Shown: positions 6,166 through 62,996, counted from the first letter of the whole stretch. The stretch: DNA of 62,996 nucleotides, filler included, from Neolecta irregularis DAH-3 (GCA_001929475.1; 7 parts of 7 records of this genome joined end to end with filler, not necessarily neighbours in it); one strand, 5' to 3'. Notes: generated by a model not told the origin, from the sequence alone. Numbers and translations: made by a program.

Positions 6166-6271
6166 ATGCTGTATGCAAAATTTCTCGCATTTCAGTCGAT
6201 ACCAAATATAAAAAGATACACAAAATCGAATCATAAAACTAAAAACCACAATCTCCTTCCCAGAGATTTCC

Positions 6272-6529
6272 TCATATACCTGCCCTTCTCTGTCTGCAAG
6301 ATCCGCAAGTTAAACAAGAGATGATGACATCGAAGCACTAAAATAGTGAGAATGGTGTGTAATAGGACAGTGTACAGCAGCGATAGCACGAACGATCCCG
6401 GTTATTATACCAGCAATACCATTAACCTTGATTTTCAGTACTTCACCGAGAACTAATGCATACAATGGCCATCAAGCAAGAGCCGATTGCTTGCAATACA
6501 CCTGTGATACAGGAGACAATACAACCCAT
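6272..6529 (-). CDS. Small (~60 aa) Cys-rich amphipathic protein, 2 introns
   Basis: Spliced MGCIVSCITGVLQAIGSCLMAI|VNGIAGIITGIVRAIAA|CFDVIISCLTCGSCRQRRAGI; clean phase-0 introns; resembles a conserved small fungal hypothetical family; MGC N-terminus suggests lipidation. Confidence 0.8.
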
Positions 6530-6796
6530 TTTGAAGTATATTTCTTTGGTGTATTTCTTTGATCAAGCGTGAAGAAACTGGTGGGTTATGGCGAGTTTGA
6601 GTTATCAACGATGACGCTTGTCATAGGACTTATTTATAATAACAAGCCAACGCGTCATCGGCGGGACACTCGACTATCTTGTTTTGTATTTGCGACATTT
6701 TTCGATACGCTCTATTGTTCGTCTAGTCTATACAACTGACCAATACTACACACTTCTTCGATACGCTCTATTGTTCATCTAGTATACTGCACTCTA

Positions 6797-12523: not shown

Positions 12524-12917
12524 CATGTTTTAGTAAAGGTGTTTACGCGCGTCTGGTAGGCACGTTGTTCATGCTTTGTGATTTTGTTGTTTGGTTTTGC
12601 TTTTCGCTATAGTATATCAGTTGAATTTTGGCCTCCACTATGAAGAGAGTTTGTGTATTATACTCAAAAAAGTGTTGTGTGCAATCAGGTCAGGATCCTC
12701 CAATAAATAATCTGCTCAATGTCAATCTAACTGTGACATCCGCCAAACTAATAACCTAAGTATAAGAACAGACATAAAAAGAGCACCCTATATACGCCTT
12801 CAACTTCGTTTATTTATAGTTTAAGGAACACCGTGTCCATGCTTGCATGGGATATAGAGCCCGCAACAACATTCAATGCAAAAAATAAACGAGATAGCCA
12901 GCCTGTATTCTTAAACC

Positions 12918-14319
12918 CTAATATTTCTTCCGTAAAATTAATGTCTTCCAGCCTTTCAAAAATGGAATTTGGCTAAAGTCGATTTTAAGAAGACTTTTCC
13001 TTGAATTTCTAAGGAGACTAGTTTGTTCACAGTGAGCAATTTGGTCATGATCTTGGTCGTGATCGGACTCTTCGATTAGTTTCCAAACCTGTTCTTCTTC
13101 GGTAGACATTTCTCTGAGCAGACCCATGGTGCCTTCCGCAGATTCGTTTAGATCTAGAATGAGGGTGGACGGGTCGGACGCTGCTTCTCGCTGCAGTCGC
13201 CACGATAGAGTGAAGACACCCACAAAAAGGATAAATGCGCCAACAATTACGAGGGATATCTGTAAAGTGGAGAGAAGGGATGCCTGGGAATAATATATCT
13301 GGAATAAGCCTCTTTTTGCAGCGTAGCACAAACCAGACCATCAAGCATGGCTGTGATGTTGTATATGCAAAACATTAATGGGTACAAGATTGTAGTTGTA
13401 CACAAACGTAGGGCACGATTTAGTAGGTACAACTGGATATTTAGTAATGAAATGTTTTTGTCAATGATACCTGAGTAAGAGCTATAGAGATCATGATTGC
13501 AAGCAAGAACCATGACTGCCAATGATTAAACTGGTTTTGCTTCTCAACAAAGGTTTTCAAGAGCAATTCAACGATGGCTTTTGAAAGAAGGAGGCCATGA
13601 GCAGAAAGAATACTGGACATTGGCCCGATTCGTGCAAAGAAAGACGTACCCGCTGAGTATCCCGAACAATACACCACGCAGCAGTTTCCAGCCTTGACTA
13701 GTTTTGTAAGAACGAGTCATGGCACAAGCCCTGGATCCTATCAAGATGCAAACAGACAAGAGGGCTTGGAAGGACATCCAACCAATAAACGGGTCTCGAC
13801 GAAGAAAGGCCAAAAGTTCCTCGAGGGAGTGAGAAGGCTCCGAGACAACTCCAAAAGCAGCAATCAAAGCAGCGCCAACCGTAACCAATATTGAACCAAG
13901 GATAGAAATGGCGGTGAAGGACTCGTGCAGAAGAATCGAGGCCCACATGGCGTTGAATATCAAACCACTCTGCAACCAGATTAGGATGCAACGAGACAAC
14001 GCAGGACTATTTTGTCCTTGGAGAACAACGTACGGCATGCAAAGGTGCAAGAATGACAACGGGCAAAGTGGTGATCTGGACGCTCGAGCCGGCCAGATTC
14101 GCGCAGACATAGGTTGCAAGACCGACTCTCCACATGGGTCGTTTCCATGTCTTTCGCCGTGTTGAGTGGGTCTCTTCACGGACATGGGATTTGCGTTGCA
14201 GCGTCAGTCCTGGAGGATCAGTTTGGTGGTGGATATCGCATACCCAGCGACTGGATCGCCGATGTGAGAATGCCCACAGTAATGCCCAGGCTGATGGCAC
14301 CGCCTGCAGAAAGCCCCAT
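12918..14319 (-). CDS. NIPA/DUF803 magnesium-transporter-family membrane protein
   Basis: GILTSAIQSLGLTLQRKSH, LPVVILAPL, SGLIFNA, SAHGLLLSKAIVEL, YLLNRAL, ILYPLMFCIYN; many TM segments. Confidence 0.88.
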
Positions 14320-14443
14320 ATGCGAGGCTCGGGCAGAAATAGCGTCGGGAGGGAAAGGCGCAACAACGGGTTCCGCTCAGCCTGCGGATTGGCTATGGCG
14401 GTGAGTCAAACTCCGTTTCCGGTCCGCCATCCACACTTCCCCT

Positions 14444-15295
14444 ATGACGTCCATAGTCCATGCTCTAAGCGATGACCAGGTATCTGCTCCTCCATCTGGT
14501 GTCTGATATGCCGTCAAGGTCAATCAGGAGCTCAAGAAGATGATTGCATTTATCAAGCAGGAGGCAATGGAAAAGGCCAGGGAGGTTCACATCAAGGTAC
14601 CACCCGGCGCCAGGCACGCATCCCACCAGTCTAGGCAGACGAAGAGTTCGCAATCGAAAAGGCCAAGCTTGTCAGGCACGAACAGACTTCCATCGATGCC
14701 AATTACGAAAAGAAAACCAAAGCAGTAAGCATGCAGCAGCAGATTACAAAGAGCAACATTATCAACAGGACCCGTTTGCAAGTTCTCGCCGCGAGACAGG
14801 AAACTCTAGATGGCATCTTTGAAGATGCTAGGCAGAGATTGCCTGATGCGATCCAGACATCGGGACTAAAACCAGAAGAGTTGTACACAAATCTGATTTT
14901 ACAGGCATTGGCATCCTACGCGGTCGTTTTGACACATTCAGGGGTTATATTCACTGATGGAGGAGGTTGTTACGGTCAAGGCAAGAACTAAGGATCATGA
15001 CGTTGTCAATAAAGCTATTTCTTCTGCTGCCAAAAAGTATCAATCACAGACACACCTTCCAGTCAAACTATCCCTCGACGAGAAGAATACTCTTCCTGCT
15101 GAATGGTATATTACCGGCCTAGTCTCAAGAGACTAACAATTCAGCGCCGGAGGTGTCACAATTTCTGGTCTAAATGGGAAAATCGAGATAGTGAACATAC
15201 TTGATGAAAGGCTCCGGCTTTTAGAATCAGAGGCATTGCCCTTCATCCGAGTAACTTTATTCGGGAAAAGCGAGACGAGAAAATTCTTTCATTAG
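14444..15295 (+). CDS. VMA4: V-ATPase V1 subunit E
   Basis: [70 protein letters not shown]. Confidence 0.97.
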
Positions 15296-15439
15296 ACAAG
15301 TTGGGTTGTGTGTGCGCATCAGTCATAGCGAATTATTATTGGAACGCTTATTTCATCGTCATAGAGGTTTTCCTGCTAGTCAATGGCTATTGGATTTGAT
15401 TTCCCATCTTCCAATAGAATGTTTGATAGTTGGTTTAGC

Positions 15440-17140
15440 TCAGGTTCCAGAAGCATACGCCTTGGCACGAAAAATCTGTCAATTGCGTTCTTATTTTCAA
15501 GTTTTAGTTGGTACTTCATTCGAATCGAGGTCTTTTGCATCAGTGACTTTGCCTAAGATGGTTAGGCTGGATTTGGGACTCCTCATATACTTCTGAGCGT
15601 TCGATAAGAATGCCACGGCTGTCATTGATTTTGCCCTGCTTATTGTTGATGGTCTCTGCAAGGGTTTCAGCTTGGTCTCGAGGTAACTGATTGTGGGGGT
15701 CATCTAAAGCCAAGTCGAGGAGGCGAATGAGAAGCTGAATCTCCAGCCAACCATCTTCATTGCTTGTTGATAGCTCCAGGATGCGAGCTGTGTAATTAGG
15801 GACTAAAGAAGCCTGTCTGGTCAGCAGAGTCTTTTTCGACTAAATATATATACATCCGAATTAAGCTTCGACTTGAAATCCTTGTTTTCAAAAAAGGCTG
15901 CAGCGGCCATGTGGCGCCGCACAAGATGCCCACGCTCAGACGTGGCGGGAAGAATTCGCAAAGCTCGATATCGAACAAGGTTTGATGAAGTGACGCTTAT
16001 CAACCAGGTTGTGACGTGTGAAACCAATCCTGATAATTCGACATGGGGGCAGTGCTGCAAGAGCTGATCTAGAGAGAATTCTGCCCTTGGAGATATCAAT
16101 TCGGTGAGTATGGAATCCATTGAGACGAGCATTATGAATTTGAACATGTCGTATAAAACATCAATCGACAATTTGTTAGTCCTGGTTGTTAGAGACCGAG
16201 AGAGGAAAGAACTAGAGACTGTAAAAGGGCGACGCAAATATCAAACACGAGTGCTAATCTCCATGCATACTGTCCAGTGTTTAGATATTTTGGCATTACT
16301 AGAGAATGAGGGAGAAAAGTGAGCGGGAATACCATTTGTTAGCAGGTAAATCTTTCGAGGAATCCTGAGCAAGGCTGTATCACCGCCGAGTGCAGTGACG
16401 GTATTTAAAACTTTATCCCAAATTAAATTTGAAGGTTTCCAATGATTTGATCCCTGATGTCAGCCTGTTCTCGAGCTGAATCTTTTACGATATAAGCCTT
16501 TATGATACTTGCATAAGATGAAGCTAACTGCTGCGAGGTCTCAAAGGCCACTATATATTAGTTAGGGGGACGGGCTGGGATGTAGATAACGTTCGGATAG
16601 CATCCAATGGACCAAGACCAAGGGAGTGTTCTCGCCAGACGTTAGCATGCGTTGGATGTACCCCGATTTGAAATGCAGCATCCGTCTTTCGGGATCTTTG
16701 ATAAGCAAAAGACATCCCTGTTGATAGCGGCTTGCCTTGAAGACAGTCCAGCCAGCCGTTAGCTTGTTCGTTCGGGAAAATCAGATCTCGGCGTCCGAGT
16801 CTTTGCGAGAAGTAAAAATATGCAGGCGGTAGGCGGGCTATGTGACCGGTCTGGACTATATGGGCAAGGGCGTCTGCTGTATTGTTCCCCAAAGCTTCAT
16901 CTAGCAAAGTATTGCGTCCGGCATTTTGCAAGATATCGTCGGTAACTTCAATCTGGGCCAGTGCATCGCATGCTTTGAATCGCTCTTGTTTGTCTTGTCG
17001 TTCTAGTTTCTCGGCAAGCAAGTGTTCCAGGGAAAATTTTGGGATTTTTCTTGTCCTGCTTGTTACTGGTGGTGATTCCGAACCTTGACGAAGCGGTTGA
17101 CTGCGATTAGTGAGCATCCGGTGAAAAAGTACGCTGTCAT
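15440..17140 (-). CDS. Multi-exon hypothetical helical protein; weak resemblance to Nse6/SLF2-type Smc5/6 factors; ends approximate
   Basis: Chain of minus-strand ORFs linked by short introns; N-terminal KFSLEHLLAEK followed by a coiled coil. Confidence 0.6.
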
Positions 17141-17481
17141 TTGATTGCTGCGATTAGGTACGCTGTCAAAAAAGAGGATGTTACAAGGGACACGTCGATA
17201 TACATTCATCATCCCAAACTCCATCAATTCTATAAGTATAAACACGAACAAAAAACGACCTATTGATATTACACCCAATCTACCCAATACACCGAACCGA
17301 AATGGAAAAAAGACAAAAATGTAGCAAAGTGGACACAGAACCCAATGAATAGAAAACGAAGTAGGAGGCATCGAATGAGCGACCGCCCAAAACACCTGTC
17401 CGGGACTATAAGAAACAAGAGGAAGGATCTAGCGAGTAAAAACAAACATGAACAAGGCGGATAAGAATGCAGATGCTATGG

Positions 17482-18882
17482 TTACATCGAAAAATATGGC
17501 TGGTTTGGATTGACGCTGGGCAAGCCAGAGTTTGCGGTGTTTTTTGGAGAAACGTCGTATTTTCGCTTTTTCGAGGGGTTACCTTGGGCGTCGTCGTCGT
17601 TGTGGTGTTCGCCGGTGGTGTCGTTGCACTTTTGTCCGTCGTGTGCAGCAGTCAGAGCCGACTGGGAGGCGAGCGTGGTGGCCGGCAAGAGGCGGGAGGA
17701 CATATGGAAGAGGTAATTTGGGTTTGGCTGCTGGTGCTGATGGGGCGAGAACGTCGGCACCGCCATTTGCGGCTGCATGGAACTGATGCTGTTGCCGCGT
17801 ACGTATGACTGGCGATGGCGATTCATCGGAGGCTCTGGTGGCAGCATGCTCGAAGAAAAGCCGTTTTGGGGTGACAACAGGATGCTCGGCGGGGCGGGAG
17901 GCACGGTTTGGTAGCCCAGGTTCTGGGTAGAAGCGTCGAAGCGATCGAGTAGCTGCGACTGAAATTGAAAGCCCTGCTGTTCCATAAACTCTTTCATCTT
18001 CTTTATGAGGTCCTGCTGGGCGGCCTGGCGCTGTTTGGTCTCATGGAGGTCGCGGAGCACGTCGCTGAGGGTGTCCTGCAGCGAGTTTACCTGCAATTAG
18101 CAGGACCATGTGTGGGCATACCCTTTGCATCAGGTCTGTTTGGGAGATCTGGAGCATTGCTACGCCGGCAGGGACATCGCCAACAGGAGTGCGGTTCATG
18201 TCGAGGTTGTCTCCCTGTTTGCGTTTGATATCGTCGAGCAAGTCTGATCTGCCGCGCTGGAAGCGGGGATGGGAAAACTCCCATATTTGGCTCTCGGGGG
18301 AGGTTTTGTGGCCGCGGGGGCTTTTGGAGACTTTTCTAAAGCCGTACCTAGAGTGAGCTGTGAGCTTTACGTAAGCGATACATGTTTAGCTGGCGGACAA
18401 AGCTGGAAAAGTTGTTATGCTTGTAGTGTTTTGGGAGGACGTCTTTGGCAAACTCTACAACGTTGCAAACAACAAAAGTGGTGCCGGGGTAGTTCCAGGA
18501 GATGAGGTGTTGGTACTGGCGATCTTCAACCATACTATGCGGATTAGAGGATAAGCTTGGGGATATACTCGTATAGGCGGTGGACGAAGCCAGCTGGGTT
18601 GGAGTAGGGTTTCTGGTCTGCTTCCGTTTTTATTGCGGCAGGGGGGAGTGGGGCGCGGCCGGTGGCGGTGGCGGGTTGGTGGTATGGGTGTGACGGCGAT
18701 CCGGGGAAGAGGGAGGAAAAGGCATCGGGCTGATTAAAGGTATGGACTGAGGAGCTACCGGGCGCGAATTGCTGGGCGATGGGATGATGGAGCGATTGAT
18801 GGTGGTGGTGCTGCTGCTGCTGCTGGGCGGCGGCGGGGGTTTGCGACAAGAGATTCCCAGGGCTCGAATGAGAATCGTGCAT
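17482..18882 (-). CDS. HSF-type DNA-binding transcription factor (Sfl1/Hsr1-like, no receiver domain seen)
   Basis: [67 protein letters not shown] plus coiled coil; Q/H-rich N-terminus. Confidence 0.93.
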
Positions 18883-19224
18883 AATATAGAAGCAGCAAAT
18901 AAGAGGATCAGACGGGTGAAGCCAGGCCGACGAGAGAAGGTGGAATCAGGAGTTCTAGACTTTTGAGGGGATTCAAGTTCAGCGGATCAGTGGCCAAGTT
19001 TGTTCTGCAGAGAAGGGCGCGGGCTTAGCCTGCTGATGCTGGCTCGGCTATGGGCGGGGCGGGTGTTTATGTAGCGGCGAGCGGCGAGGCGCGAATGCCA
19101 GCGGCATGGACAAGAATGAGCGAGCCTGGATGTATGCGGCAGGTGGTAGGAGGGTGGTGTAGCGGGTGTGGAAGGGGAGCGGGAGGGATTGGGTGTGGGT
19201 GTGGATAGGGTGGGCGCTAGTAGA

Positions 19225-19445
19225 GAATGATGTAGAATGGAATGATATGATTGAGTAGATAGAATGGAATGATATGATTGGGTAGGTAGAATGGAGCGAT
19301 ATAATTGGGTAGGTAGAATGTAATGACATAGATTGAGTAGGTAGATGGAATACGATAGATTGAGTAGGTAGAATGGAATAATATAGATTGAGTAGGTAGA
19401 ATGAATTGATGGAATGGATATGACAGATATGACAGATATGATATA
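19225..19445. repeat. Minisatellite, ~27-28-bp unit (GTAGAATGGAATGATATGATTGAGTAG), about 6 copies
   Basis: Units start near 19232, 19259, 19286, 19313, 19341 and 19368. Confidence 0.85.
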
Positions 19446-19510
19446 TGTGGGCACTATCAAGTCCCACCGCCCCCACACAACAGCAAACCCAAGATGAGAC
19501 ATAGAGGGCG

Positions 19511-19610
19511 NNNNNNNNNNNNNNNNNNNNNNNNNNNNNNNNNNNNNNNNNNNNTTAATTAATTAANNNNNNNNNNNNNNNNNNNNNNNNNNNNNNNNNN
19601 NNNNNNNNNN
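19511..19610. other. Artificial contig linker N-TTAATTAATTAA-N (also at 51591-51690, 53629-53728, 57124-57223, 58977-59076, 60224-60323)
   Basis: Identical 100-nt spacer with stop codons in all six frames. Confidence 0.99.
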
Positions 19611-48496: not shown

Positions 48497-50234
48497 TTAC
48501 TCTAATTTCATCTCGTGCATCTCATCTAATAGTTCCTCTATTGGAATCTCGGGAAAATCAGCATCATCCTCATCTTCACCTACGATTCCTTCATCGAGTC
48601 CCTCCATTTTGGTCGGCCGGTCCTTGTGTTTATAAACATTGACCCTATCCATTAGCTATAGTTCCTGGAATCAAATCCCACATAGAACGCATTTCAGTAT
48701 CCTCTTCTAGATCCCGAAGAAATTCTTCATAGTCTCGTTCCTGTTTTTCAATATCTTGCTTCCGTGGGTTCATTTCCGTTTGCTCCTTGGATAACGTGCG
48801 CAACTTCCAGTTCCGAGTTTTGTTCTTCTTTCTTCGATTTGGATAACTCTTTTTCACGAGAATAATATCTGGAAGTAAAGACTGATCGAGTGATTCGTAC
48901 TCGGGGTCGTTGAAGTTTGTAGTCGTTAAATGATAGCCCCTAGCGGTATCTCCTGGTTTCAGAATCGCGCCGAGATGAGTTCGTACTGTATATTGTTGAT
49001 CATTTACGCCTAGATCCGAACTCTTTGCGATTTCGACGTCTGCGAGGGCAAGTCGCCCGTGCGTTTGGCCCAGAAGCTCTACATCCAATACAGTGAATTC
49101 AACCAACTCATGGATATCAGCGAGGGTGCAAAATGGTGTACGCCAGTATACAGGACATGCCACGTCCGTTGTTCGTAGAGTCAAAGGGTCGATAAGGTGT
49201 ATAGAATTTCCGACTCTACTACAAAGTAGTAGCTGACTAACGCAAATCAGGATTATGAACCACCCTAGATTGCACCTGATGTTCCCTAAGCTTTTTGCAA
49301 GTTTCCCAGACAGGCAAACCAAATCATCCTTACAGATCGGGATTAACTCAACAGACCATGTAAACTTATACGTATTAGTAGACGTATGAACATCCATACT
49401 GATCAACTCTTCGCTTTTCTTAGTTCTAACGGGAACAACATTATTCAGAAAATCAACCATTTTGATAGCCCCATTCCTTGAAGGATAGAAGAAGTCCAAG
49501 CCATCTTTTACTTCAACGATATTATTACAATCTCGATGAGCATTATGTTTGAGAATAAGTTGTTCAAGATATAAAAATGTCCGTTTATGCTGCACCTTTT
49601 GACGGATCTGAACGGACGCTTTCCAAGTATTTTTAGCATGAAGTTTAGCACAATCGAGACATTGTTGATTCGTTACAACATATTCGACTTCAAAGGACTG
49701 CTGTAGAATTGTCGATACAAATGCTTCTTTTTGGATGGTTAGTTTTACTCGAACACGTCGAGAATGAGGTTCTGTCCAGATAAACCCTGCATCAATTAAC
49801 CGGACCTGCCATGATGAGAGAGAATTTCGCTAGAATGACATGCTTTGTTTAATCCGCGAAGCTTTCGAAGACAAAGAGCGAGGAGTTCACGACTCTCTGG
49901 TTGTGCGTTGACCCACTGACTTGGTGGCGAAAGAAATCGCTGAATTTGTTAGTATGACCTGGGCAACAGTTGTACTTCGCAACTCCGACAAAAGTTCAAC
50001 ACCGCTTCCCTTGGTATTCCTCATGTAAGGATAAGTAAACGAGAATTTTTGCACCTTCAGTGATATCGGTGGAAGTCTTCAAGCAATCGATACACATAGC
50101 CGCAGGGTTATGTCTAATGAAAATCAGCCGCTGAACTGTAAAAGAGCATACAGGATTGGAATACCGCATGAACAGCATAGAATTGTCGCAATCTGTTCAT
50201 CCATAACCATCTGTTCATCCACAAGATTTTCCAT
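48497..50234 (-). CDS. NMD3: 60S export adaptor Nmd3
   Basis: ILCCSCG, ESRELLALCL, LIDAGFIWTEPHSRR, WKASVQIRQKVQHKRTFLYLEQLILKH, RDYEEFLRDLEED. Confidence 0.97.
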
Positions 50235-51190: not shown

Positions 51191-51690
51191 GGTGGATGTT
51201 CAAGAGCAAATTGGTCTGTCAGCAGGAAAAGACAATGCACACGTGACGTGCTCCGATCGCCGTAGCAAAATACAACAGACATGCATAGTGGAAGCATGCC
51301 TTATGAAACTGCGTGCTATGGTAAGATAAGCCTGGAAACAGTCTAACTGTAATGAGACTCATTGTCCGCCATGACTTACAGATATTTAAAAAGATCGCTT
51401 CAACAAGAGTGTGGGGTTCCATGAACCCCACAGCCACCATCCAAGTTCAAGCCTGACCCCCAGATGCAAACACGACGAATGACCGCATGAGGAGTGAGTA
51501 GACCTAATAGAGGCACTCGTGGACCGGGTTACTAAATCTGTAGAGGCTGGAGAAGGTACGACTACCCATTCAATGGAGTCTTGACATGTANNNNNNNNNN
51601 NNNNNNNNNNNNNNNNNNNNNNNNNNNNNNNNNNTTAATTAATTAANNNNNNNNNNNNNNNNNNNNNNNNNNNNNNNNNNNNNNNNNNNN

Positions 51691-52242
51691 GTCTCTTTCT
51701 CTTTCTCTGTCGGTTCTCTCTATGTCGGTTCTCTCTCTGTCGGTTCTCTCTCTGTCCGTTCTCTCTCTGTCGGTTCTTTCTCTGTCGGTTCTCTCTCTGT
51801 CGGTTCTCTCTCTTTCTCGGTCCGTTCTGTCCGTTCTTTCTCTGTCAGTTCTCTCTCTTTCTCTTTCACTTCTGTCCGTTCTGTCCGTTCTCTCTCTTTC
51901 TCGGTCCGTTCTGTCGGTTCTGTCGGTTCTCTCTTCTCTATCCATTCTCTCTTCTCTATCCACTCTCTCTCCTCTATCCATTCTCTCTTCTCTATCCACT
52001 CTCTCTCGTGGTCTATCCGGATTATCCACTCTCCCTCGTTCTCTCTCTCCCTCGCGAGGAAAAGATGGCGATATCGACCGGCGCCTGCTGTCAGAATCGC
52101 CACTATACCTTCCGCACCAAATATTTCTCGGCCTCGGCGTTCTCCACGCTCCCGGCGGCGACTCCTCTACAGTTTCTCGGGCGCGCGGCCGGTACGAATC
52201 GCCAACCCCGCGAGGGCGATAGTAGCGGTCCAGTCCGGTCAT
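51691..52242 (-). CDS. RE/RD-rich nuclear-type protein, 5' part (runs into the gap)
   Basis: MTGLDRYYRPRGVGDSYRP..RRRSISP followed by (RERTD)n repeats. Confidence 0.7.
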
Positions 52243-52268
52243 GTTCAGAAATACCCCCGCCAAACACC

Positions 52269-52664
52269 ATGACCCATTTCCACTTTCGGTCCCTGTTTCT
52301 CCTACTCGCTCTCGCATATGCTGAAACAAGCTATATCGTCACCCTTGGAAAAAACTCTTGTCTCTCAGATCTCAAAAATGCAGAAAACTACGTCACTTCT
52401 CAAGGCGGAAAAATCATAAACGAATACACAACCCTCATTTGGTTTGCTCCCCCTGGCCCATGCTGACTATAGCGGTTTCGCTGTAAGCTTCAACTCGGAC
52501 TCGGTCAACGCTGCTCTCGTCCAACAGACTCTTTCTGATCTGGAAAGCAAATATCCAGGCATCAGCGTCGAGAAAAACCAACAGCTTCGTATGTACATGA
52601 TATTGTCCCTCTAACATGAGATCTGCTCAATCCCCAGTCCTCGCCAAGCAAACGAGGGTTGTAA
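52269..52664 (+). CDS. Small secreted peptidase inhibitor I9 (subtilisin-propeptide-like); stop at 52614 if the last intron is not used
   Basis: Signal peptide, SYIVTL, V.SQGGKIINEY, GFAV, VEKNQ. Confidence 0.85.
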
Positions 52665-52732
52665 CATCCTCAAGCGAGAATGTAACATCCTCAAACGAGG
52701 TTGTAACATCCTCAAACGAGGTTGTCATCCTC
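52650..52732. repeat. 21-bp tandem repeat (AAACGAGGTTGTAACATCCTC) x4
   Basis: Directly visible tandem units. Confidence 0.9.
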
Positions 52733-52777
52733 AGTTGTAGATTATATATTATGATTGCTGTTTTATTNNNNNNNNNN

Positions 52778-53628
52778 GTAGCTTTCGTCCCGCGCCTCCC
52801 GCTCAATCGCCTCCCACCGCCGCTGCGACTCCCGCTTGCCCGCCTGCAGCCCGCTGATGTCCGCCTTGAGCCCCGCAATCTGCTCCTCCAGCTTCTCCAG
52901 CTGCCGTCAGCCCGCTCTCCTCCACACATACCTCCGCCCCGTGCCTTGCGTCCATCTTGCTCCACCGCTTGTTGTAGCCCCGTCCGTAGTCTGAATGTGT
53001 GTACCGAGGCCCCGTAGGTGTGTTTCGCCGTCCTTCTCGCGGTCCCGTAGGTGTAGAATATACTTGTCTTGTCCGTTCTCTATCGTTTGCGTTTTCTCTT
53101 TCGTTTCGGCGGTCGGTCGTGTTTCTTCTGTCTCTGTCTGTTGTGTCTCTTTCTCTTTCTCTGTCGGTTCTCTCTATGTCGGTTCTCTCTCTGTCGGTTC
53201 TCTCTCTGTCGGTTCTCTCTCTGTCGGTTCTCTCTCTGTCGGTTCTCTCTCTTTCTCTTTCACTTCTGTCCGTTCTGTCCGTTCTCTCTCTTTCTCTGTC
53301 CGTTCTGTCGGTTCTGTCGGTTCTCTCTCTTTCTCTTTCACTTCTGTCGGTTCTGTCGGTTCTCTCTCTTTCTCGGTCCGTTCTGTCGGTTCTCTCTCTT
53401 TCTCTATCCACTCTCTCTCGTGGTCTATCCGGACTATCCACTCTCTCTTCTCTATCCACTCTCTCTCCTCTATCCATTCTCTCTCGTGGTCTATCCGGAC
53501 TATCCACTCTCTCTCGTGGTCTATCCGGATTATCCACTCTCCCTCGTTCTCTCTCTCCCTCACGAGGAAAAGATGGCGATATCGACCGGCGCCTGCTGTC
53601 AGAATCGCCACTATACCTTCCGCACCAA
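52778..53628 (-). CDS. RE/RD-rich protein, overlapping second copy and 3' part
   Basis: Same sequence as 51691-52119 with different repeat counts, then two PTGPR motifs and, after an intron, the coiled coil LEKLEEQIAGLKADISGLQAGKRESQRRWEAIERE. Confidence 0.7.
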
Positions 53629-54067
53629 NNNNNNNNNNNNNNNNNNNNNNNNNNNNNNNNNNNNNNNNNNNNTTAATTAATTAANNNNNNNNNNNNNNNN
53701 NNNNNNNNNNNNNNNNNNNNNNNNNNNNTACACGGCTCTCAGTAATTGGATCTAGTGCAAAAAGTAAGAGCGAACCACAGCATTCACCGACGTCATGAAG
53801 AGTGGATATATTGACCTCCCTAAGGAGGAATTGGATGCGAGTGATGGGGGACACATCCGTGTGTATACAGACTCTCGACAGCGAAGTGAAGATATTTTTC
53901 CCATGCTTGGATTTTATGGTGTCGTAACCTGCGGCTTCTACAGTCGGCTGTTTGGAAGGATGTTGCAGAAGATATTGTTACTGGGTGATCCGGTTGGATG
54001 ATAATGCTATCAAATGCACTTTGATTTGTTTTATCGAAGACCTGCAGATAATGTGTCTCTAGCCAAA

Positions 54068-54269
54068 TGTTGGGATTCCGTGATAGTTCCCCATTTGGAC
54101 CCTAACCCTGTTTGCCTACGCCCTTGACCCGCTGCGCTGCTAAACTGAGCACTGCTTGCCTCGCCTGCTCGCTTCCTCTCGCTCCCCTACCCTCCTCGCC
54201 TGTTACTGCCCCGCCCCTCCTGACCCATTACCGCCCGCCCTCGCCCATTACCGCCGTCTTATCACAACA
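54068..54269. mobile_element. Solo-LTR-like segment (TG..CA)
   Basis: Termini TGTTGGGAT and ATCACAACA form an 8/9 inverted match; C-rich interior; no target-site duplication seen. Confidence 0.35.
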
Positions 54270-54287
54270 CTGGTGATTGTATAGCTG

Positions 54288-54395
54288 GATGTACACTGAT
54301 AGTGTTGAACAAGGCAATTATATACCTGAATATACTGCAAGTGTGGTTTTATGAATATCAGGAACACTGCAAAAGGAACAAGGCATGAAATCACA
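54288..54395 (-). repeat. Inverted repeat copy A
   Basis: 54347-54395 matches the reverse complement of ~55823-55871 with one mismatch; weaker similarity continues outward. Confidence 0.9.
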
Positions 54396-54586
54396 AGAGG
54401 CGTGCGAGGAGGGCGAGATGGGAGAGACCGGCGAGACGGCTATCATAATACAACGACAATGAAACCACCGAGACCACCGATGGAGAAAGCATCGAAGCCG
54501 AAACAAACCCCTGAAGATTGGCCAAGTCATTGTGACTCAAGTCTTGGGGTCGTCGATACCCCAAAGTGTCTTGACCTTCCCATCCG

Positions 54587-54637
54587 AATCCATTTCAGCA
54601 AGCAATGCATATGGAAAAGATGTGTACATCTTCCCAT
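54587..54637 (-). pseudogene. APC11-like RING-H2 gene fragment
   Basis: MGRCTHLFHMHCLLKWI matches the Apc11 G.C.H.FHMHC..KW motif; the flanking Cys pairs are absent. Confidence 0.6.
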
Positions 54638-55305
54638 ACTGGAATTAACAGCGATACCGAAATAGAGAAATGCGATTGACCAGAACTAGGAGATAGGAGC
54701 GAATACCGGCATTCTGGCGGCCCGATGATTCTCGGAATAGTCTGGACGCGGCTGTGCAGCAAAATGGGGCCATATGACGCCTTGAACAGAAAGCTGTAAG
54801 TTTGAATCCGGTGTTTTATTCGGTCTAATGTGAAGCGCGCCTATTTATATCAATGAAGTCTTCGTTGCACATACTTTCCCGGATGCTGAGATACCAGCAG
54901 GCAACTCGGAACTTTGCGACTCGAACACCGCGAGGAACAATATAATTCGACGGCGCGGCTTGGGAGTGAGTTTTCGCAGATATCGGTGTCGGCACTCGGA
55001 ACTTGGAAATTCCATCGCAGAGTCTACCTGGCCTGGCTTGATTTCAAGACCCAATCGCTTTTATACGCACCTTTGATATGCCTATTAATACACCCTTTAG
55101 CATAACCTGCTTTCACACAATCCGACGAGCCGCAGTTTATAGTAGAAAGGTATAAATATTCCANNNNNNNNNNCTTGATATGCCTATTAATACACCATTT
55201 GTTCTATACCCCTAGCATAACCTGCTTTCACACAATCCGACGAGCCGCAGTTTATAGTAGAAAGGTATAAATATTCCATCATGTTCGTCTCAACTACTCA
55301 TCACA

Positions 55306-55722
55306 ATGAATCTCCTCGTTATTATCATCAGTTTCGCCTGTGCAGTGCTTTCAGATGAATATGATAACATTGGCCTCGATATACATATAGACTCGGTCAC
55401 TCATCCTCTTTACACCGCGAGCGACAATCTACTTTGGGATCCCGCCAATGGGCAAATTGGCAACTTCAATATCAACAATGACGACCACATACTTACTGAC
55501 AAGAATGGCTATGAGCTCCACTCGAATAGTGACAAACTTGTATTTCAGCTCAACTCGGGAAATGCTGCAGTTCCTGTTAGATCTGTTAACAATAGGGTGG
55601 AACACTCTGAAAATGGGGCGTGGTTTGAAACGTTCTATGTATGCTTGGGAACCTCAAATGACTACAATGTTTACGCATTCGAAGCGAACAATTGTAATAC
55701 GAAAGCAAAGATTACTTGGTAA
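55306..55722 (+). CDS. Small secreted protein, 138 aa, intronless, C-terminal Cys pair
   Basis: TATAAA at ~55266, CACAATG start, signal peptide MNLLVIIISFACAVLS, beta-rich body ending FYVC..NNC. Confidence 0.8.
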   Translation: MNLLVIIISFACAVLSDEYDNIGLDIHIDSVTHPLYTASDNLLWDPANGQIGNFNINNDDHILTDKNGYELHSNSDKLVFQLNSGNAAVPVRSVNNRVEHSENGAWFETFYVCLGTSNDYNVYAFEANNCNTKAKITW

Positions 55723-55822
55723 GGACGTTGCTTGCATTTAATAGTCTAACAAGCTAGGTATTCTTGAGTGGAATGGATGACTATTTCTAAGAGGCTATTT
55801 GATTTGTATTCAATAGAAGTGA

Positions 55823-55925
55823 TGTGATTTCATGCCTTGTTTCTTTTGCAGTGTTCCTGATATTCATAAAATTGCTTGCGGTACATCCAGTATACAACTG
55901 CCTTCTACACTATCATCGTACACCC
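55823..55925 (+). repeat. Inverted repeat copy B (starts TGTGA, LTR-end-like)
   Basis: Reverse complement of 54288-54395. Confidence 0.9.
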
Positions 55926-56515
55926 CTGCGTGGCCGTCTTGGGACCAGAGTGGTCTGGATACGGAAAAGCAGCGACAGCAGTGCTGGACTCGCCAACGAG
56001 GATGCACAGGCGGGGCGGGAGCGGCATTGACTCGGCCAGCGCAGATTACAAAGACTCGAGAATAACCCGCGAGCCCTGTCGGCAAATCAGGGCTGGCGTT
56101 GCCCTCGGAGATCAAACAGCGATTCCCACCGCAGGCCTACTCCCGCTGGCCATAGGACAGTGTTGGGGCCGGGCCATGAAAAGCCCGCCCATCCCGAAAC
56201 GGGCATTTCCACGTGATATTAGAGAGGGCAGCCCTTGCCCTTCACGGTATCATCCTTCTGCCTTCCACCCGCCTTGCCTGCCAGTCTCGCCAGCCTCTCC
56301 CATCGCTCGCGCCACTCGCGAGTACCTCCCGTCCCGCCTCTCCAATCGAGCTGGATGAGACTGGCAGGTAGTGAGGATAAATAGCTTAGATAATAATACA
56401 CATCCAGGGGAGGTCCCCAGCAGTCGCTTTAGTAAATATGGTGAATGTGAACTTTAATATAACAGGGATTTGTCTGTTTCTTCCCTCACTCACTCAGTCA
56501 CCAATCTCGACATTG

Positions 56516-57002
56516 CTAGTCACTATGTTGTAAGTAAAATCCTTTCAACAGCTGGTTTTTCCGGTGCAGAACAGAGATGCGGAGTGTGAACTGAAAACAG
56601 TTATCGCTCCTACCCGATTGAATTGTTTTCTTGTTATTGCACGAATGAAATTCGGCGTGAGCACCTTGGTCGTCAAGGTATTGAAAAGACTGCTCTGACG
56701 TCCTGAAATAAGTTGTGGACTTGGTATCGTGGGAATAGAATTGGTAATGGTCGCTCTCCCATTTCGCTACATTATCATTGGCCTCGTCCTTGTTAGAGTA
56801 GCGCAAATTTTGATGTTTGTCAACGAAGAATGTCCCACATCCTTTATTAGTCGAATGATATATTAAAATATATTTTTCAACTTGCGCACAGTTCCCCTCG
56901 CCTTGTTCCAAGTGTAACTCTAGGTAGACATGTTATTTACCTATCCAACTCTCAGTCGCCTAGCTCTTGATATCTTGACAATACCAGCATCAAGTGCTAA
57001 TT
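56516..57002 (-). pseudogene. Probable decayed distant paralog of the 55306 secreted protein
   Basis: Similar layout (YLELHLE..GTFFVD..AEFHSC..DNCFQFTL); no in-frame ATG; in-frame TAA upstream; TCACA-ATT where the intact gene has TCACA-ATG. Confidence 0.45.
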
Positions 57003-57223
57003 GTGAAAGAATTTAGTGAGGCAGGTGATATGCTTGAGCCTCGTCGATTTAAACTTCAGCCAGATATTATTGCAGCAGCCCAGTGCCAGCGAAGCTGGGG
57101 TCGGAATGACTTTGTGAATTGGTNNNNNNNNNNNNNNNNNNNNNNNNNNNNNNNNNNNNNNNNNNNNTTAATTAATTAANNNNNNNNNNNNNNNNNNNNN
57201 NNNNNNNNNNNNNNNNNNNNNNN

Positions 57224-58830
57224 GCCTTTGCCTCCCTTCCTCACTCCTGTCCCTCCTGCCTGCCTTTGTCTCCCTCCATTCAATCTCTAATTCAATGAAC
57301 CCAAGATCCTACTCAAGCATTCTCTCAATTGAGGTCTCTTGATTCACCTATTAAGGTCTCTCAATTAGCCAACTGATCCTCATATGAATAGGACTCTCAG
57401 TATCTCAATCTCTCAAGTCTCTCTGAACTTTGTAGACTGGTTCAACCAAATACACAAAGTATCTTTGGCAACTCTTGATCTACTTGGAACTAGTGCAATT
57501 GGCAAACCAGGTAAAAATTTATGTATAATACTAAAATTCTTGCTAACTGGTGAAGGAGGCACACTATCCAGGAGTGCTTTTACCAGTTTACCATTAATTA
57601 TTACCATGATTAATGAAGACTTCATCATGAAATGTAGTGGCTGGGTCTGAGGGTGACCCAATTCCTCATCTTCTTCTAGGCCCATATGCACTGACTGGAT
57701 TGTGTCTGAAACAGCCCCCCTAGTCAGTTTAGCATATCTAGCCAGGAACAAAGGAGATGGTATTTCCTTGAGATCACCTGAGGTAAGATTTACATCCTCC
57801 ATAGTCAGGAGAATAGCTGCCTTTATTTCTGTGAGATCCTGGGGCATGAGTTCACAATCCATTATGTTGACAAGATTTGAGGCAGGAGTTCTAGATGATT
57901 TCAATTCTTGACTAAAAGCCTTACAGCTGCCAGGGATAATCCTAAGATGGGACCAACCATAGTAGTGAATGGGATGTCTTCAAGTTGTTTAATCAATGTA
58001 GGAGATACATCAATATTTGCAACTGGTGCAGGCTTAACTACCCACTTCTGTCCTGGTTTGGGGTTCATTGCTGGGGCAGCAGTAACTGGAATCTACCACC
58101 CATACTTCGAGGGTCAAGGTGTTGCTGCAGCCCAGACATCCACTATAGTCTCTTCAATGATTTTATCTTCAGGTGTGATAGGTCCTAGGGTAATCATCCA
58201 AGCATTAAGAGTTGGAGTTAATAGAGGGTGGGTCTTCTGTCCACCTGGTCTGAAGTAGAGGGGAATGACTTGACCATTCTTATCCTCCAACTTCTTGTCA
58301 TCATTAATGAGGACCAGACCAGACTTCAAAGCTTATTGAAAATCTGGGCAGTTGTTATGGGAATGATCCAAGGCATTACACCAGATGTATCTAAAAGGCT
58401 TATCTCCTGATGCAGTGCTAACTGTGTTAACCCTGGTCATTGGGGATGCTGCTGTTCCAATTCTAGACTCAAGAGCTCTGATTTTTACCTGAAGGGACAT
58501 CATTACTTCACCATCAGCATAATATTGAACACAGGGTAGGGCAAGGTTAGCCTTGGGGAGTACCATCACATGTTCACTCCATTCAATAGCCTCTCTCAGG
58601 GCCTCATGTGCAAGGGCAATAACCTTCTTGAAGGGGACTATTCCTTCAGAATCCTTGTGAGGGTGGATTGCCAACTGGATGGCAATCCGTTGCAGTTCAG
58701 TGAAGCTCTCAAGAAAGAGTGCATGCTGCTGGTATTGGGATAAGGCCTGGCAGTGGTGTAATGAATCGACTGATGTTGAATCCAATGATGGATTCATGAA
58801 TCTGATACAAATCAAGTTTGGGATTTGAAT
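57224..58830 (-). mobile_element. Degenerate Ty3/gypsy LTR-retrotransposon gag-protease relic
   Basis: Decayed zinc knuckle YIWCNALDHSHNNC followed by GLVLINDDKKLEDKNGQVIP; protease-like VIINGKLVKALLDS; internal stops and frameshifts. Confidence 0.8.
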
Positions 58831-59076
58831 TGATTCAATGGTTCAAAACAAAGATATAAATAGTATTATAATATTAAATTTCCATTTTAGGGTATCTTAT
58901 TATATTTAGAATTAGCTAAAAATAATTTTATAACTATAATATTTTCTATAACAAGGTTAATATCAATATACTTCTTNNNNNNNNNNNNNNNNNNNNNNNN
59001 NNNNNNNNNNNNNNNNNNNNTTAATTAATTAANNNNNNNNNNNNNNNNNNNNNNNNNNNNNNNNNNNNNNNNNNNN

Positions 59077-59216
59077 TGATAATAAATTATAAGCTATGAT
59101 AACATATTGTAACCTATTACAACATATGGTAAGCTATGATAAAATATTTTAAGCTATGATAACCAACTATAATCCATTATAAGCTATGATAACCCATTGT
59201 AACCCGTGTAACTCAN
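59077..59216. repeat. AT-rich satellite with 10-bp period (second copy of ~60038-60156)
   Basis: TAAGCTATGA / TAACATATTG / TAACCCATTG units. Confidence 0.9.
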
Positions 59217-59914
59217 NNNNNNNNNTACCACTAGACCGCATCTGGTGTTCATACTAACCACCAGAGCGAACTCCTTACATAAACATGATTGTGTTATACA
59301 AATTGTACTAATAAATCTTGTGTGACACTCCTGGAGGTGTTACTGAGTAATTAACAATAAACAAGTTTAATATTTCAGAAGATACAAAGAGAGAATAATA
59401 TATATAATAGTGAGGACAATATAATAAACTAAAGAAAGGTTATTAATTAACATACATTATGTAATGTTAAACTATGATCAAACAATGTTGTACTATATAA
59501 TAATACATAGGACAGGCAAATAGAAAGTAGTTTAAGGAGTTTGATCTTGTGTTATTAAGAATAACAGAATCTGTCTAGTGGTAGAAGGTTATAGAAGGTA
59601 ATGGAATATGCCACTATATTCTGTAGCTGCTAATTAGTGGCCTTATTATATTATAAGTAGATTTCTATCTATTGTACTATTTTCTATTACTGTTTTATCT
59701 GCTATGGTGGTTCATTTCCTTATGGTAATTAAGGGCTATTGTTATTATATAGTTCCTATACTAGTTTTGGCTAACCTCTACCTTGTACCTACTTCTGTTA
59801 TATACTGGTTCAAAGTTACTCTAGTCCTATTAGTGAAGCATGCCCTTGTGACATGTTTACAGATATTGTGATATAATATATAAGCTATATAATTCAATAT
59901 AATGTTGTTTAACT

Positions 59915-60223
59915 GATTGTAACCCATTATAGCCTATGATAAACAATTTTAACCCATGATAATACATTGTAATTAATGATAACACATTTTAATCAATGAT
60001 AACATATTTGTAACCCATTATAATATATTGTAACTTATGATAATAAATTATAAGCTATGATAACATATTGTAACCTATTACAACATATGGTAAGCTATGA
60101 TAACCAACTATAATCCATTATAAGCTATGATAACCCATTGTAACCCGTGTAACTCATTGGATATTATAATTTTAATCATTGTATTATAATCTAACCCCGT
60201 CTGAGTGTATGAATAGCTAACCC
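59915..60223. repeat. AT-rich satellite with 10-bp period and TAACCC-like core
   Basis: More than 20 degenerate TAAC(C/A)(C/T)AT(T/G)(A/G) units; the contig ends in CTAACCC. Confidence 0.85.
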
Positions 60224-60323
60224 NNNNNNNNNNNNNNNNNNNNNNNNNNNNNNNNNNNNNNNNNNNNTTAATTAATTAANNNNNNNNNNNNNNNNNNNNN
60301 NNNNNNNNNNNNNNNNNNNNNNN

Positions 60324-61955
60324 CTCGAGGAACGATCACATATCTTGCGGAGAAAGGGACCTATACACTTGAAGCACTTTGGGTTAGGTTAAGTGACACT
60401 GATATTTTTAGGATGACGTACTGGAAATCGAGTTTGAAGGACAAAAGTCGAAGCATAAAATGATGCATACATGGCCAGTCCGGTCTCCTCGACCTGTAAC
60501 AGAGAAATTGGTCGCAAACCATCCACTCTTGACTGGTCAAAGAGTTCTGGATGCTCTTTTTCCGTACAGTTATAATTTAGCAGTGGTTACATCTCTAGGA
60601 ATGTTCAAGGCGGTACAACTGCCATTCCAGGCGCTTTCGGTTGCGGCAAGACTGTTATCTCTCAGTCACTATCCAAGTACTCAAATTCGGACATCATTAT
60701 CTATGTAGGGTGTGGCGAGAGAGGAAATGAGATGGCAGAAGTTCTGATGGATTTTCCCGAGGTATATGCTGAAATATTCGCCTTGTGACAGCAAGCTCTC
60801 AATTGAAATCGATGGTCGCCGCGAACCTATCATGAAGAGGACTTGCTTGGTCGCAAACACTTCCAACATGCCCGTTGCTGCACGAGAAGCATCTATTTAT
60901 ACGGGTATTACTATTGCTGAATACTTCAGAGATCAGGGCAAGAATGTTGCGATGATGGCGGATTCTACTTCGCGATGGGCTGAAGCTTTGCGCGAGATTT
61001 CTGGCAAGTTGTAGCCAATTTTGGGACTGAATCTTAGGACGGCTTGCTGAAATGCCTGCTGATTCTGGATATCCTGCCTACCTTGGTGCCAAGGTGTGAG
61101 TTCTTTGCCTCTAGACTTACTTTATAGTTGGCATCGTTCTATGAAAGGGCTGGAAAAGCAGTATGTCTGGGAAGCCCCTGCCGGGAAGGCACGGTGTCTA
61201 TTGTTGGAGCTGTGTCGCCGCCTGGGGGTGACTTTAGTGATCCTGTGACGTCTTCGACGCTTGGAATTGTGCAGGTCTTTTGGGGTCTGGACAAGAAGTT
61301 GGCGCAACGAAAGCACTTTCCTTCTGTCAACTGGTCTGTTAGTTACAGTGTGCACCAATTTCTACATGGCGCTTATTACGAGGCAAGTATACGAATGTTT
61401 TGCAGGCGTGGTATGAAAAAAACGAGCCCGACTTTACGGATCTTCGTGACAAAGTCAAAGAGATTCTCCAATGCGAGGAAGATCTCTCTGAAATTGTCCA
61501 GCTTGTTGGCAAGGTTTGTGGGAGTTTGTCGCAGTTTTGATTTGATAGAGCGCTTTAGCCGAGTCTGACAAGGTTACGCTTGAGGTAGCTCGGCTGATCA
61601 AGGATGACTTTCTGCAGCAGAATGGGTAGATGAGAGTGGGGACATTTGCTAATGGCAGGTACTCTAACTATGATCGCTACTGTCCTCTTTACAAGACGAC
61701 GGCGATGTTGAAAGGGCTTGTTGGTTTCTATAACCACGCGCAGACGGCCGTTGGGACGGGAGTCATTTCCTGGGCTCAAATCCGGGATAAGATGGGGCCG
61801 GTGATGCACGGGCTGCAGTCGATGAAGTTTGAGGTAGGACTTGAAAGAAAGGGTGCTGATTACAGGATCCGGCAGATGGAGAAGAGGTATTGAGGGAGCG
61901 ATACGAGAGACTAGTTGTGGATATGAACGAAAAGTTCCGAGCACTAGTTGACTAG
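60324..61955 (+). CDS. VMA1: V-ATPase catalytic subunit A, 5'-truncated by the gap, no intein
   Basis: [59 protein letters not shown]. Confidence 0.98.
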
Positions 61956-61980
61956 ATACGAGCAAAAAGAGATAATATCT

Positions 61981-62858
61981 CTACAATAGACCTTGTCGTT
62001 TCAAGTCCTCAAAGACAGTTTTTGTCATTACGTTTCCGTCAGCGTCTTCCATTTCGATAGTGGCGCCGAGGGCAGTTTCTTCGGCGCGCTTGTCAGCCTT
62101 TATTTTTTCCCATACTGAGGATCAGCGGGGGGAAGAGGGGGTACTTGCGGGCCAGGGCATCGTCTATCTGTGTGATTTCCTTGAAGAGGGCGGAAGTCTG
62201 GATGCCGAGACAGCGCAGGCCGTGGACGTGTTTCCACTCTGTAAAGTGCTTGTCGAAGGCCTTGCGGCCCATGTAGACGGAGCTGCAGATTTCGCAGGAA
62301 TACTCGACGCCGAGGCCGTGCAGCTTGTAGAGCCAGAAGGGGATGGGCTTGCCGTCCCAGCCGAGGGGCAGGTTGAGCGGATTGTAGATGCGGGCCGAGT
62401 CGTCTGTGGGATTGTCGTCGTCGGGGTCTTGGGGGCGGGCCTCGATGTCGACGACCTCGCGCTGGCGCTCTGAGCCGGTCAGGGTCTGGCGGCGCTCGAC
62501 GTTGTTCTTTGTGTCTGCGCGCTGGGGGGCGAGCAGCTCGAGGACGCTGGTGATGAAGAGCTCTTCAGCGGCGATGGCGAGATCGCGGGCTGTGGCGGTG
62601 GTGGTAGTAGCGGTAGTATCAGGGACTGAGTCTGGGAGAACAGGGACTGAGTCTGGGATAGGGACTGAGTTTAGGGTAGTAGCAGTAGTATCAGGGACCG
62701 AGTCTGGGAAAGTAGCAGTAGTAGCAGGGACTGAGTCTGGGGTAGCAAGGACTGAGTCTGGGATAGGGACCGAGTCTGGGAGAACAGGGACCGAGTCTGG
62801 GAGAACAGGGACCGAGTCTGGGAGAACAGGAACCGAGTCTGAGGCAGCCGAGTCGGCC
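61981..62858 (-). CDS. PRP9: Splicing factor SF3a60/Prp9, 3' part
   Basis: [68 protein letters not shown]. Confidence 0.95.
62600..62850 (-). repeat. Coding minisatellite (21-bp PDSVPVL unit and variants) inside PRP9
   Basis: GGGACCGAGTCTGGGAGAACA tandem units. Confidence 0.9.
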
Positions 62859-62869
62859 NNNNNNNNNNA

Positions 62870-62996
62870 ATGCTGAAATATTCGCCTTTGTGACAGCAAG
62901 CTCTCAATTGAAATCGATGGTCGCCGCGAGCCTATCATGAAGAGGACTTGCTTGGTCGCAAACACTTCCAACATGCCCGTTGCTGCACGAGAAGCA
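62870..62996 (+). other. Second, slightly variant copy of the VMA1 segment 60766-60891
   Basis: Identical except for a 1-nt intron indel (CCTTG/CCTTTG) and a synonymous GAA/GAG change. Confidence 0.9.

Follow-up and report, generated by a model that had tools for sequence, protein, structure and literature searches.

The whole stretch of DNA analysed here (the window, 62,996 nucleotides from Neolecta irregularis DAH-3) consists of seven pieces, located at 1–19510, 19611–51590, 51691–53628, 53729–57123, 57224–58976, 59077–60223 and 60324–62996. They are joined by a 100-nt linker carrying a six-frame stop. The window has six copies of this linker, in which TTAATTAATTAA is located at positions 19555, 51635, 53673, 57168, 59021 and 60268. 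Two of these artificial contig joints (57124–57223 and 58977–59076, no strand assigned, both of the type 44 N, TTAATTAATTAA, 44 N) lie on either side of the region 57224–58976, which is therefore a complete stand-alone contig of 1753 bp. This contig belongs to the deposited assembly of N. irregularis DAH-3, and it is almost devoid of CpG dinucleotides.

At its left end, the contig has a C/T-rich low-complexity stretch (57224–57282, plus strand) in which a unit of about 38 nt is repeated in tandem. Next to it lies a high-copy repeat of about 280 bp (57283–57565, no strand assigned) that contains no CG at all and that we recognized by its word depth in the public sequencing run X1. A gag reading frame can be followed on the minus strand over 57901–58842, with a likely start ATG at 58797 and four in-frame stops (TAA at 58333–58335, TGA at 58114–58116, TAG at 58093–58095 and TGA at 57901–57903). 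It includes a C-terminal homology region (58231–58485, minus strand) that is made up of a degenerate CCHC knuckle and a conserved block. A further open frame of 188 aa (57413–57979, minus strand, putative) is shifted relative to gag and overlaps the end of the gag frame. Upstream of the gag ATG, the contig runs on for another 134 nt before it ends.

Size and specificity of the CpG deficit

An exact recount of the contig gave three CG dinucleotides, at 58108, 58688 and 58767, in full agreement with the number and the positions reported in the first-pass annotation of this DNA. At the GC content of 41.1%, 73.9 CG would be expected from base composition, corresponding to a CpG observed/expected ratio (o/e) of 0.041. 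In 2000 mononucleotide shuffles of the contig, the CG count had a mean of 73.9, a standard deviation of 7.0 and a minimum of 50, and the Poisson probability of finding three or fewer is 5.5e-28. All other 1753-bp segments of the joined sequence (n = 1017) have an o/e of at least 0.574, with a median of 0.911.

The loss is specific for CpG. All NCG trinucleotides are at or below 0.12 o/e (0 for ACG, 0.07 for CCG, 0 for GCG and 0.09 for TCG). TG (n = 133) and CA (n = 131) are strand-symmetric and in excess, with a TG+CA o/e of 1.245 versus 0.86–1.12 in the other pieces. This excess of about 35 above the local background accounts for roughly half of the approximately 70 lost CpGs. A strong CpG deficit together with a reciprocal, strand-symmetric excess of TpG and CpA is the pattern by which methylation-driven decay is recognized, and it is the pattern that the contig displays; the near-total CpG loss fits the decay of methylated cytosines.

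Canonical RIP is diagnosed by a TpA/ApT index above 0.89 and a (CpA+TpG)/(ApC+GpT) index below 1.03. The contig has values of 0.73 and 1.62, both negative, and RIP of the canonical Neurospora type can thus be rejected. The low NCG values, the TG/CA excess and the RIP indices together bear out the earlier view that CpG itself has been lost here by something other than a Neurospora-type process. A TCG-targeted hypermutation as in Pucciniomycotina is rejected as well, since the depletion is equal in ACG, CCG, GCG and TCG. CAG (o/e 1.40) and CTG (o/e 1.75) are in excess, so that there is no plant-like CHG depletion, and with CWG undepleted in the contig a plant origin is unlikely.

In piece order, the CpG o/e values of the window are 0.91, 0.91, 1.14, 0.88, 0.041, 0.217 and 0.90. 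The only CpG-poor pieces are the relic contig and the adjoining AT-rich contig of 1.1 kb (59077–60223), which contains 5 CG. The erosion is not common to every transposon relic, since a frameshifted C-terminal hAT fragment at the end of the adjoining 3.4-kb contig retains its CpG (56801–57123, 10 CG, o/e 0.72). The first-pass annotation had used the CpG-rich genes of the window as a contrast to the relic. The difference in composition is real, the five CpG-normal pieces having an o/e of 0.88–1.14, but those genes lie on other contigs. Because the contrast crosses artificial joints, contamination, which the annotation had itself named as the case against its reading, retains some probability. 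The same caution applies generally to draft assemblies that stem from field material and have been concatenated: a contrast in composition between adjoining pieces crosses an artificial joint there, and it may mean different source organisms.

A gag relic and its family

The contig carries a gag that has decayed and that belongs to a family related to Ty3/gypsy. The sole part with detectable homology, whether by phmmer, by a profile of 27 ORF1s or by tblastx, is the region 58231–58485. Its knuckle, YIWCNALDHSHNNC at 58348–58389, is degenerate (YxxC-x4-H-x4-C), with a tyrosine replacing the first cysteine, and is followed by a block of the type ALxxGxVxLNxxG..P..FG.GG.K. An exhaustive phmmer search with the stop-masked gag frame yielded 12 proteins (E values of 6.3e-6 to 4.8e-4), and all 12 alignments fall within residues 111–227, which comprise the knuckle and the block after it. 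The matches are metagenome or read-archive proteins for which the sole name given is "hypothetical protein"; four of the six that were tested have a sub-threshold Retrotrans_gag match.

Related loci were collected by a pattern scan of metagenome contigs, in which 87 were confirmed and 80 kept. We tested the domain content of eight long ORFs from five of these loci (L008, L011, L024, L045 and L066). DUF4100 was present in all three ORF1s, one of which also showed a near-threshold aspartyl protease, and all five ORF2s contained RVT_1, RT_RNaseH and Integrase_H2C2, accompanied by rve in three cases. The domain order in these relatives is that of Ty3/gypsy elements of the fungal type, with a DUF4100 gag–protease ORF1 and an RT–RNase H–integrase ORF2. 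The profile built from 27 ORF1s matched the relic at 58231–58485 alone (E value of 1.9e-15 in a search of six sequences) and in no other frame, and 47 of 47 tblastx HSPs against the related loci were inside 58213–58510.

The five loci share a homologous gag knuckle block with the relic, and the spacing from knuckle to protease in L008 resembles the approximately 272 codons that separate the knuckle of the relic from an 'ALLDS' in the 188-aa frame. However, the identity amounts to only 29–40% over about 60–110 residues. Unlike these loci, the relic has four stops, a frame change and only a putative protease, and is without a confirmed RT, RNase H, integrase or LTR. As the contig is a fragment in which the pol order protease–RT–RNase H–integrase is absent, its membership in Ty3/gypsy is assigned by gag homology only. 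The description of the locus as a gypsy relic accordingly stands for the gag, whose damaged knuckle region is homologous to Ty3/gypsy gag; a protease or pol could not be confirmed.

Pfam searches of four relic ORFs gave no family at an E value of 1 or below, and the 188-aa ORF had no match to the profile of 27 ORF1s; a protease reading of 'INGKLVKALLDS' is unsupported by both. Word-based searches for homologues returned none for the gag ORF among 44 scored candidates of near length, and none for the 188-aa ORF among 574 scored candidates of longer length. Neither Pfam nor profile matches outside the knuckle block indicated an RT, RNase H or integrase on the relic contig. The high-copy repeat at 57283–57565 could be an LTR, for which neither a second copy nor a PBS or PPT was recognized on the contig. 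When the contig was compared with the remaining ~61 kb of the window by blastn, dc-megablast and tblastx, only chance-level matches were obtained, and no further copy of the gag fragment or of the 280-bp repeat was found there. Searches of the whole window with Rfam at gathering thresholds and with tRNA scans gave no matches.

CpG poverty is no trait of this element family. Across the 80 related loci, the CpG o/e has a median of 0.91, a minimum of 0.45 and a maximum of 1.33; none of them is below 0.3, and just three are below 0.5.

We also aligned the codons of the relic with those of 27 relatives and inspected the columns in which at least 30% of the relatives have CG. There are ten such columns, and the relic has CA in only one of them (H162). 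The codon is CAT in the relic; 22 of 27 relatives have Arg at this place, and 52% have CGN, so that the derivation of this CAT from CGT, as suggested before, fits the family. The other codon changes that had been attributed to CpG or CpA decay fared less well. At the Cys/Asp junction the relic has TA, and deriving TGT-AAT from TGC-GAT would require two hits at one CpG; the remaining CG-frequent columns have codons that are not CpG-derived, mostly AAG. The TAC at the first knuckle Cys, a residue conserved in 27 of 27 relatives, is a G>A change outside CpG. The in-frame TAA falls at a Glu/Asp position, and to reach it from GAA takes a transversion. It should be noted that relatives at 29–40% identity are too distant to be taken as ancestors, and the codon test therefore carries little weight either way.

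Copies in public reads and the source of the contig

The comparison with public reads covered the relic contig alone. The stretch is present in two runs of one study, X1, which has 0.84 of the words sampled, and X2, which has 0.24, and no RNA run is listed among the public runs that contain it, the kind of X2 being only guessed ('DNA?'). In X1, contigs matching the relic exactly have word depths of 431, 466 and 540, pieces running past the two ends of the contig have depths of 247 and 164, and three diverged paralogous pieces, about 81–82% identical, have depths of 482–486. In the bins 57283–57577 the summed word depth is 21,311–159,224, versus 431–540 for the rest of the contig, which indicates that the ~280-bp repeat is present in hundreds of copies.

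Among the differences between copies in X1, 48 of 78 places (62%) were transitions and 30 were transversions. Most of these differences are not CpG transitions, which speaks against methylation decay. Of the 40 differences listed, besides which there are 41 more, five would yield a CG in the other copy. The contig has a T at 57431 and 57438, where by far most members of the high-copy family have a C, giving a CG. In the left-end CT-rich array, a variant unit in X1 reads CCCGCCCGCC, with CG at two places, versus CCTGCCTGCC in the contig, with TG at both. At 57692/57693 the contig has TG and one paralogue has CA, the kind of pair to which a single ancestral CG should give rise by independent decay on one strand or the other. 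In this small sample, CpG sites are over-represented among the copy differences relative to their rarity, yet they are a minority.

Run X2 covers 57692–58262 at about 99% identity. One of its contigs skips a 40-nt stretch with GT..AG ends (57962–58001, plus strand), which may be a deletion allele, or a short intron if X2 is RNA; as X2 is only guessed to be DNA, the skip is given no weight here as a sign of splicing. The introns of the Neolecta NMD3 gene, at 35–38 nt, are similar in size to this stretch; an exon of that gene on piece 2 is 96% identical to the 60S ribosomal export protein NMD3 of N. irregularis DAH-3.

We consider it probable that the contig is native to Neolecta. According to the accessible part of the genome paper, the DNA and RNA of N. 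irregularis were obtained from fruiting bodies that the authors had gathered in the field, and the assembly comprises 14.5 Mb with 44% GC, an N50 of 16 kb and 199-fold coverage (PMC5309816). If X1 represents the reads of this assembly, the depths of the contig body (431–540) and of its ends (164 and 247) are in the range of the published coverage, which would place the contig at one to a few genome equivalents. The fungal type of its gag family and its place in the deposited assembly also favour a native origin.

It is possible that the contig stems instead from another eukaryote on or within the fruiting body taken from the field, the most plausible one being a CG-methylating fungus such as a basidiomycete, whose multi-copy repeats were assembled and whose single-copy DNA was not. 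The contig is isolated, short and unlinked, it comes from field material, and its o/e is unlike that of every larger piece. It also carries a repeat with a summed depth of up to ~159,000 that does not recur in the remaining 61 kb, and the adjoining short contig is likewise CpG-poor. The CpG retained by the hAT fragment counts on this side as well. Of the Atlas clusters, those nearest to the gag family are mostly from Basidiomycota or Streptophyta, and they can serve as leads only. However, the repeat family of a low-coverage contaminant should vary more in depth than what is seen for body, paralogues and ends, whose depths are uniform and in the range of the 199-fold coverage. Moreover, the contig passed the screens of both the authors and the archive, the lack of CHG depletion argues against a plant, and the 80 related loci do not come from strongly CpG-depleting genomes. 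A foreign source thus seems unlikely to us; if it applied, the relic would be an ordinary methylated repeat of another organism.

CG methylation as the proposed cause, and known systems

We give an even chance to an account in which a Neolecta repeat or heterochromatin region, with a dead Ty3/gypsy fragment beside the high-copy ~280-bp repeat, was eroded by CG-specific deamination of 5mC; for a native contig, this would be the simplest explanation. The relic contig would then be Neolecta's own repeat or heterochromatin DNA, and its CpGs would have been methylated by a CG-specific cytosine methyltransferase, for which a DNMT5-like enzyme is the candidate. The methylated CpGs would have been lost slowly on both strands, as spontaneous deamination of 5mC to T turned them into TpG and CpA, and unmethylated genes would have retained their CpG o/e of near 0.9.

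As a rule, the Taphrinomycotina are regarded as lacking 5mC, S. pombe and Pneumocystis being the examples given. DNMT5, a CG maintenance enzyme, has a methylase fused to a SNF2 ATPase. That methylated sequence is depleted of CpG via 5mC deamination is described as a general principle in the accessible part of a published paper (PMC13297926). In the portion available to us, the first version of a preprint on Pneumocystis centromeres states that there are no DNA methylases in any sequenced Taphrinomycotina (PMC10327204). The later version of the same preprint, again as far as its accessible text goes, describes PF00145-domain proteins in N. irregularis and Saitoella complicata, and BLAST searches with these proteins retrieved Pneumocystis SNF2 ATPases and helicases (10.1101/2023.05.12.540427). 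The retrieval of SNF2 ATPases and helicases suggests a DNMT5-like SNF2 fusion, a reading that is ours and not that of the preprint. The first-pass annotation had inferred that repeats are targeted by CpG methylation in this lineage, an inference to which the preprint's statement on PF00145 proteins in N. irregularis lends some help. Somewhat more tentatively, and at slightly less than even chances, Neolecta may have retained ancestral CG methylation, unlike fission yeast and Pneumocystis; it would probably be DNMT5-based and confined to retrotransposon-rich heterochromatin.

Long open frames of 169 and 188 aa survive on the relic contig beside a CpG loss of 96%. This implies either that CpG decay was far faster than other substitutions, or that the element was already CpG-poor while it was active. 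For this reason, two minor rivals stay in play, a CpG-directed process similar to RIP and an inherited CpG poverty.

The former would be a hypermutation that is triggered by duplication and directed at CpG, not CpA, and that erases CpG rapidly during sexual cycles. Precedents for CpG targeting are the TCG preference in some Pucciniomycotina and enzymes of the MIP type. Near-complete CpG loss despite the two surviving frames is in line with such a process, as are the paralogous copies in X1 and the fact that TGA, the codon to which CGA should decay, accounts for two of the four in-frame stops. However, the NCG contexts reveal no preference, with ACG and GCG at 0, CCG at 0.07 and TCG at 0.09, and just 62% of the between-copy changes are transitions. 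A RID/Masc1 homologue is unreported in the accessible parts of the Neolecta literature searched. We regard this process as improbable.

An inherited CpG poverty seems to us just as doubtful a cause. Here, the lineage of the element would have been CpG-poor before its entry or amplification, for example after horizontal transfer from a CG-methylating host; in a variant, the poverty would be due to long adaptation of the active lineage. In either case, the void would say little about present-day Neolecta. The majority sequence of the high-copy family is itself CpG-poor, with two CG-creating majority differences listed in about 250 bp, and the long frames have been kept despite the CpG loss, both of which would agree with this idea. 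On the other side, all 80 sampled relatives have a CpG o/e of at least 0.45, and copies in X1 have CG where the relic has TG.

Under the preferred reading, that of a native repeat eroded through CG methylation, the relic can be set beside several known systems. CpG depletion of methylated transposons is a feature of Basidiomycota, of some Pezizomycetes (Tuber, and Ascobolus with its MIP) and of vertebrate repeats. Like the relic, the methylated repeats of these organisms have a CpG o/e far below 1 and an excess of TpG and CpA; the effect is limited to repeats there, and may be so in Neolecta. The o/e of 0.04 places the relic at the extreme end of these systems, as judged from one 1.75-kb contig and an AT-rich neighbour at 0.22. 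RIP in Neurospora resembles the proposed process in being a repeat-directed C-to-T process in an ascomycete, but differs in that CpA is in excess in the relic and TpA is not raised.

We found no report of 5mC or of CpG-depleted repeats in Neolecta in the literature searched, which lacks most subscription journals. If the contig is native, a CpG-eroded methylated repeat would be a known kind of footprint that is new in this lineage. It would constitute cheap and independent evidence that CG methylation restricted to repeats is of long standing in an early-diverging ascomycete, and the places to look for more of it would be short repeat contigs, likely from centromeric or subtelomeric DNA. If the methylation account is true, the relic contig would be the first sequence-level footprint of CG methylation in Taphrinomycotina, and the loss of 5mC within this group would become datable and testable.

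In Cryptococcus neoformans, the methylated repeats are centromeric and subtelomeric Tcn relics of the Ty3/gypsy and copia types. Their likeness to the case discussed here would lie in a fungal CG-only methylation that is limited to transposon-rich repeats and spares the genes, with a DNMT5-like enzyme proposed for Neolecta. The two differ in standing, since Cryptococcus is a basidiomycete with demonstrated methylation and Neolecta a Taphrinomycotina ascomycete that is known here from sequence alone. The CG methylation of transposon-rich repeats in Cryptococcus is Dnmt5-dependent, according to the accessible part of the corresponding work (10.1101/149385). By analogy, this Dnmt5-dependent CG methylation appears to be the closest mechanistic counterpart of the process that may have shaped the Neolecta relic.

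A high-copy repeat within the relic contig

The relic contig, a stand-alone sequence of 1753 bp (57224-58976) with a decayed Ty3/gypsy gag, contains a very high-copy short repeat of about 280 bp at 57283-57565. In X1, one of two public sequencing runs of the same study that hold relic-contig sequence, its summed word depth reached up to ~159,000, and the depth around it was ~450. Each listed variant place within the repeat was covered by 7-17 variant contigs in this run, apart from one place with a single contig. Depth at the repeat was also elevated in X2, the second run (30-58 versus ~3.8). The rest of the window held no further copy. Candidate types for this element are a SINE, a MITE, a solo LTR or a satellite monomer.

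Joints of the window and its coding pieces

The window was built from separate contigs, and the linkers between them are identical 100-nt stretches (44 N, TTAATTAATTAA, 44 N) at 19511-19610, 51591-51690, 53629-53728, 57124-57223, 58977-59076 and 60224-60323. Features that span these linkers or are compared across them are not physically linked. Scaffold gaps of 10 N each lie at 52768, 55164, 59216 and 62859.

The Neolecta NMD3 gene, which encodes a 60S ribosomal export protein, lies on the minus strand at 48500-50234. Its introns are very short (35-38 nt); comparison of the DNA with the annotated protein gave three of them, and tblastn coordinates supplied one. Also on the minus strand is an open frame of 1162 aa (7069-10557), for which a Pfam search gave no match. 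It carries tandem repeats of 120 and 270 nt (8086-9457), rich in GAATCAGATTC-type units whose translation is Ser/Asp-rich. A frame of 473 aa is open on the opposite strand as well, and the GpC o/e (observed/expected ratio from base composition) falls to 0.185 across 8001-9000. The 1162-aa frame is probably a gene for a repetitive cell-surface or disordered protein.

CpG content of other contigs in the window

The neighbouring 3.4-kb contig ends in what we take, from recognition by eye, to be a hAT-transposase C-terminal dimerisation-like fragment (56979-57123, ...KEFSEAGDMLEPRRFKLQPDIIAAAQCQRSW...), with an apparent frameshift immediately upstream. CpG is retained around it (10 CG in 56801-57123, o/e 0.72).

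The contig at 59077-60223 is 1.1 kb long and AT-rich (28.5% GC), and is also poor in CpG (5 CG, o/e 0.217). A block of ~137 nt, composed of ~20-nt 'TGATAACATATTGTAAGCTA'-like tandem units, occurs at both its start and its end (59079-59215 and 60020-60156, 88% identical). Such a layout points to a tandem array or a circle, or else to terminal repeats.

The 1.9-kb contig at 51691-53628 is satellite-like sequence, consisting mostly of CT-rich tandem repeats of 15-45 nt (TCTCTCTCTGTCGGT and variants); frames are open in several of the contig's phases. Its CpG content is normal to high (o/e 1.14); this satellite-like contig is not CpG-depleted, whereas the relic contig is.
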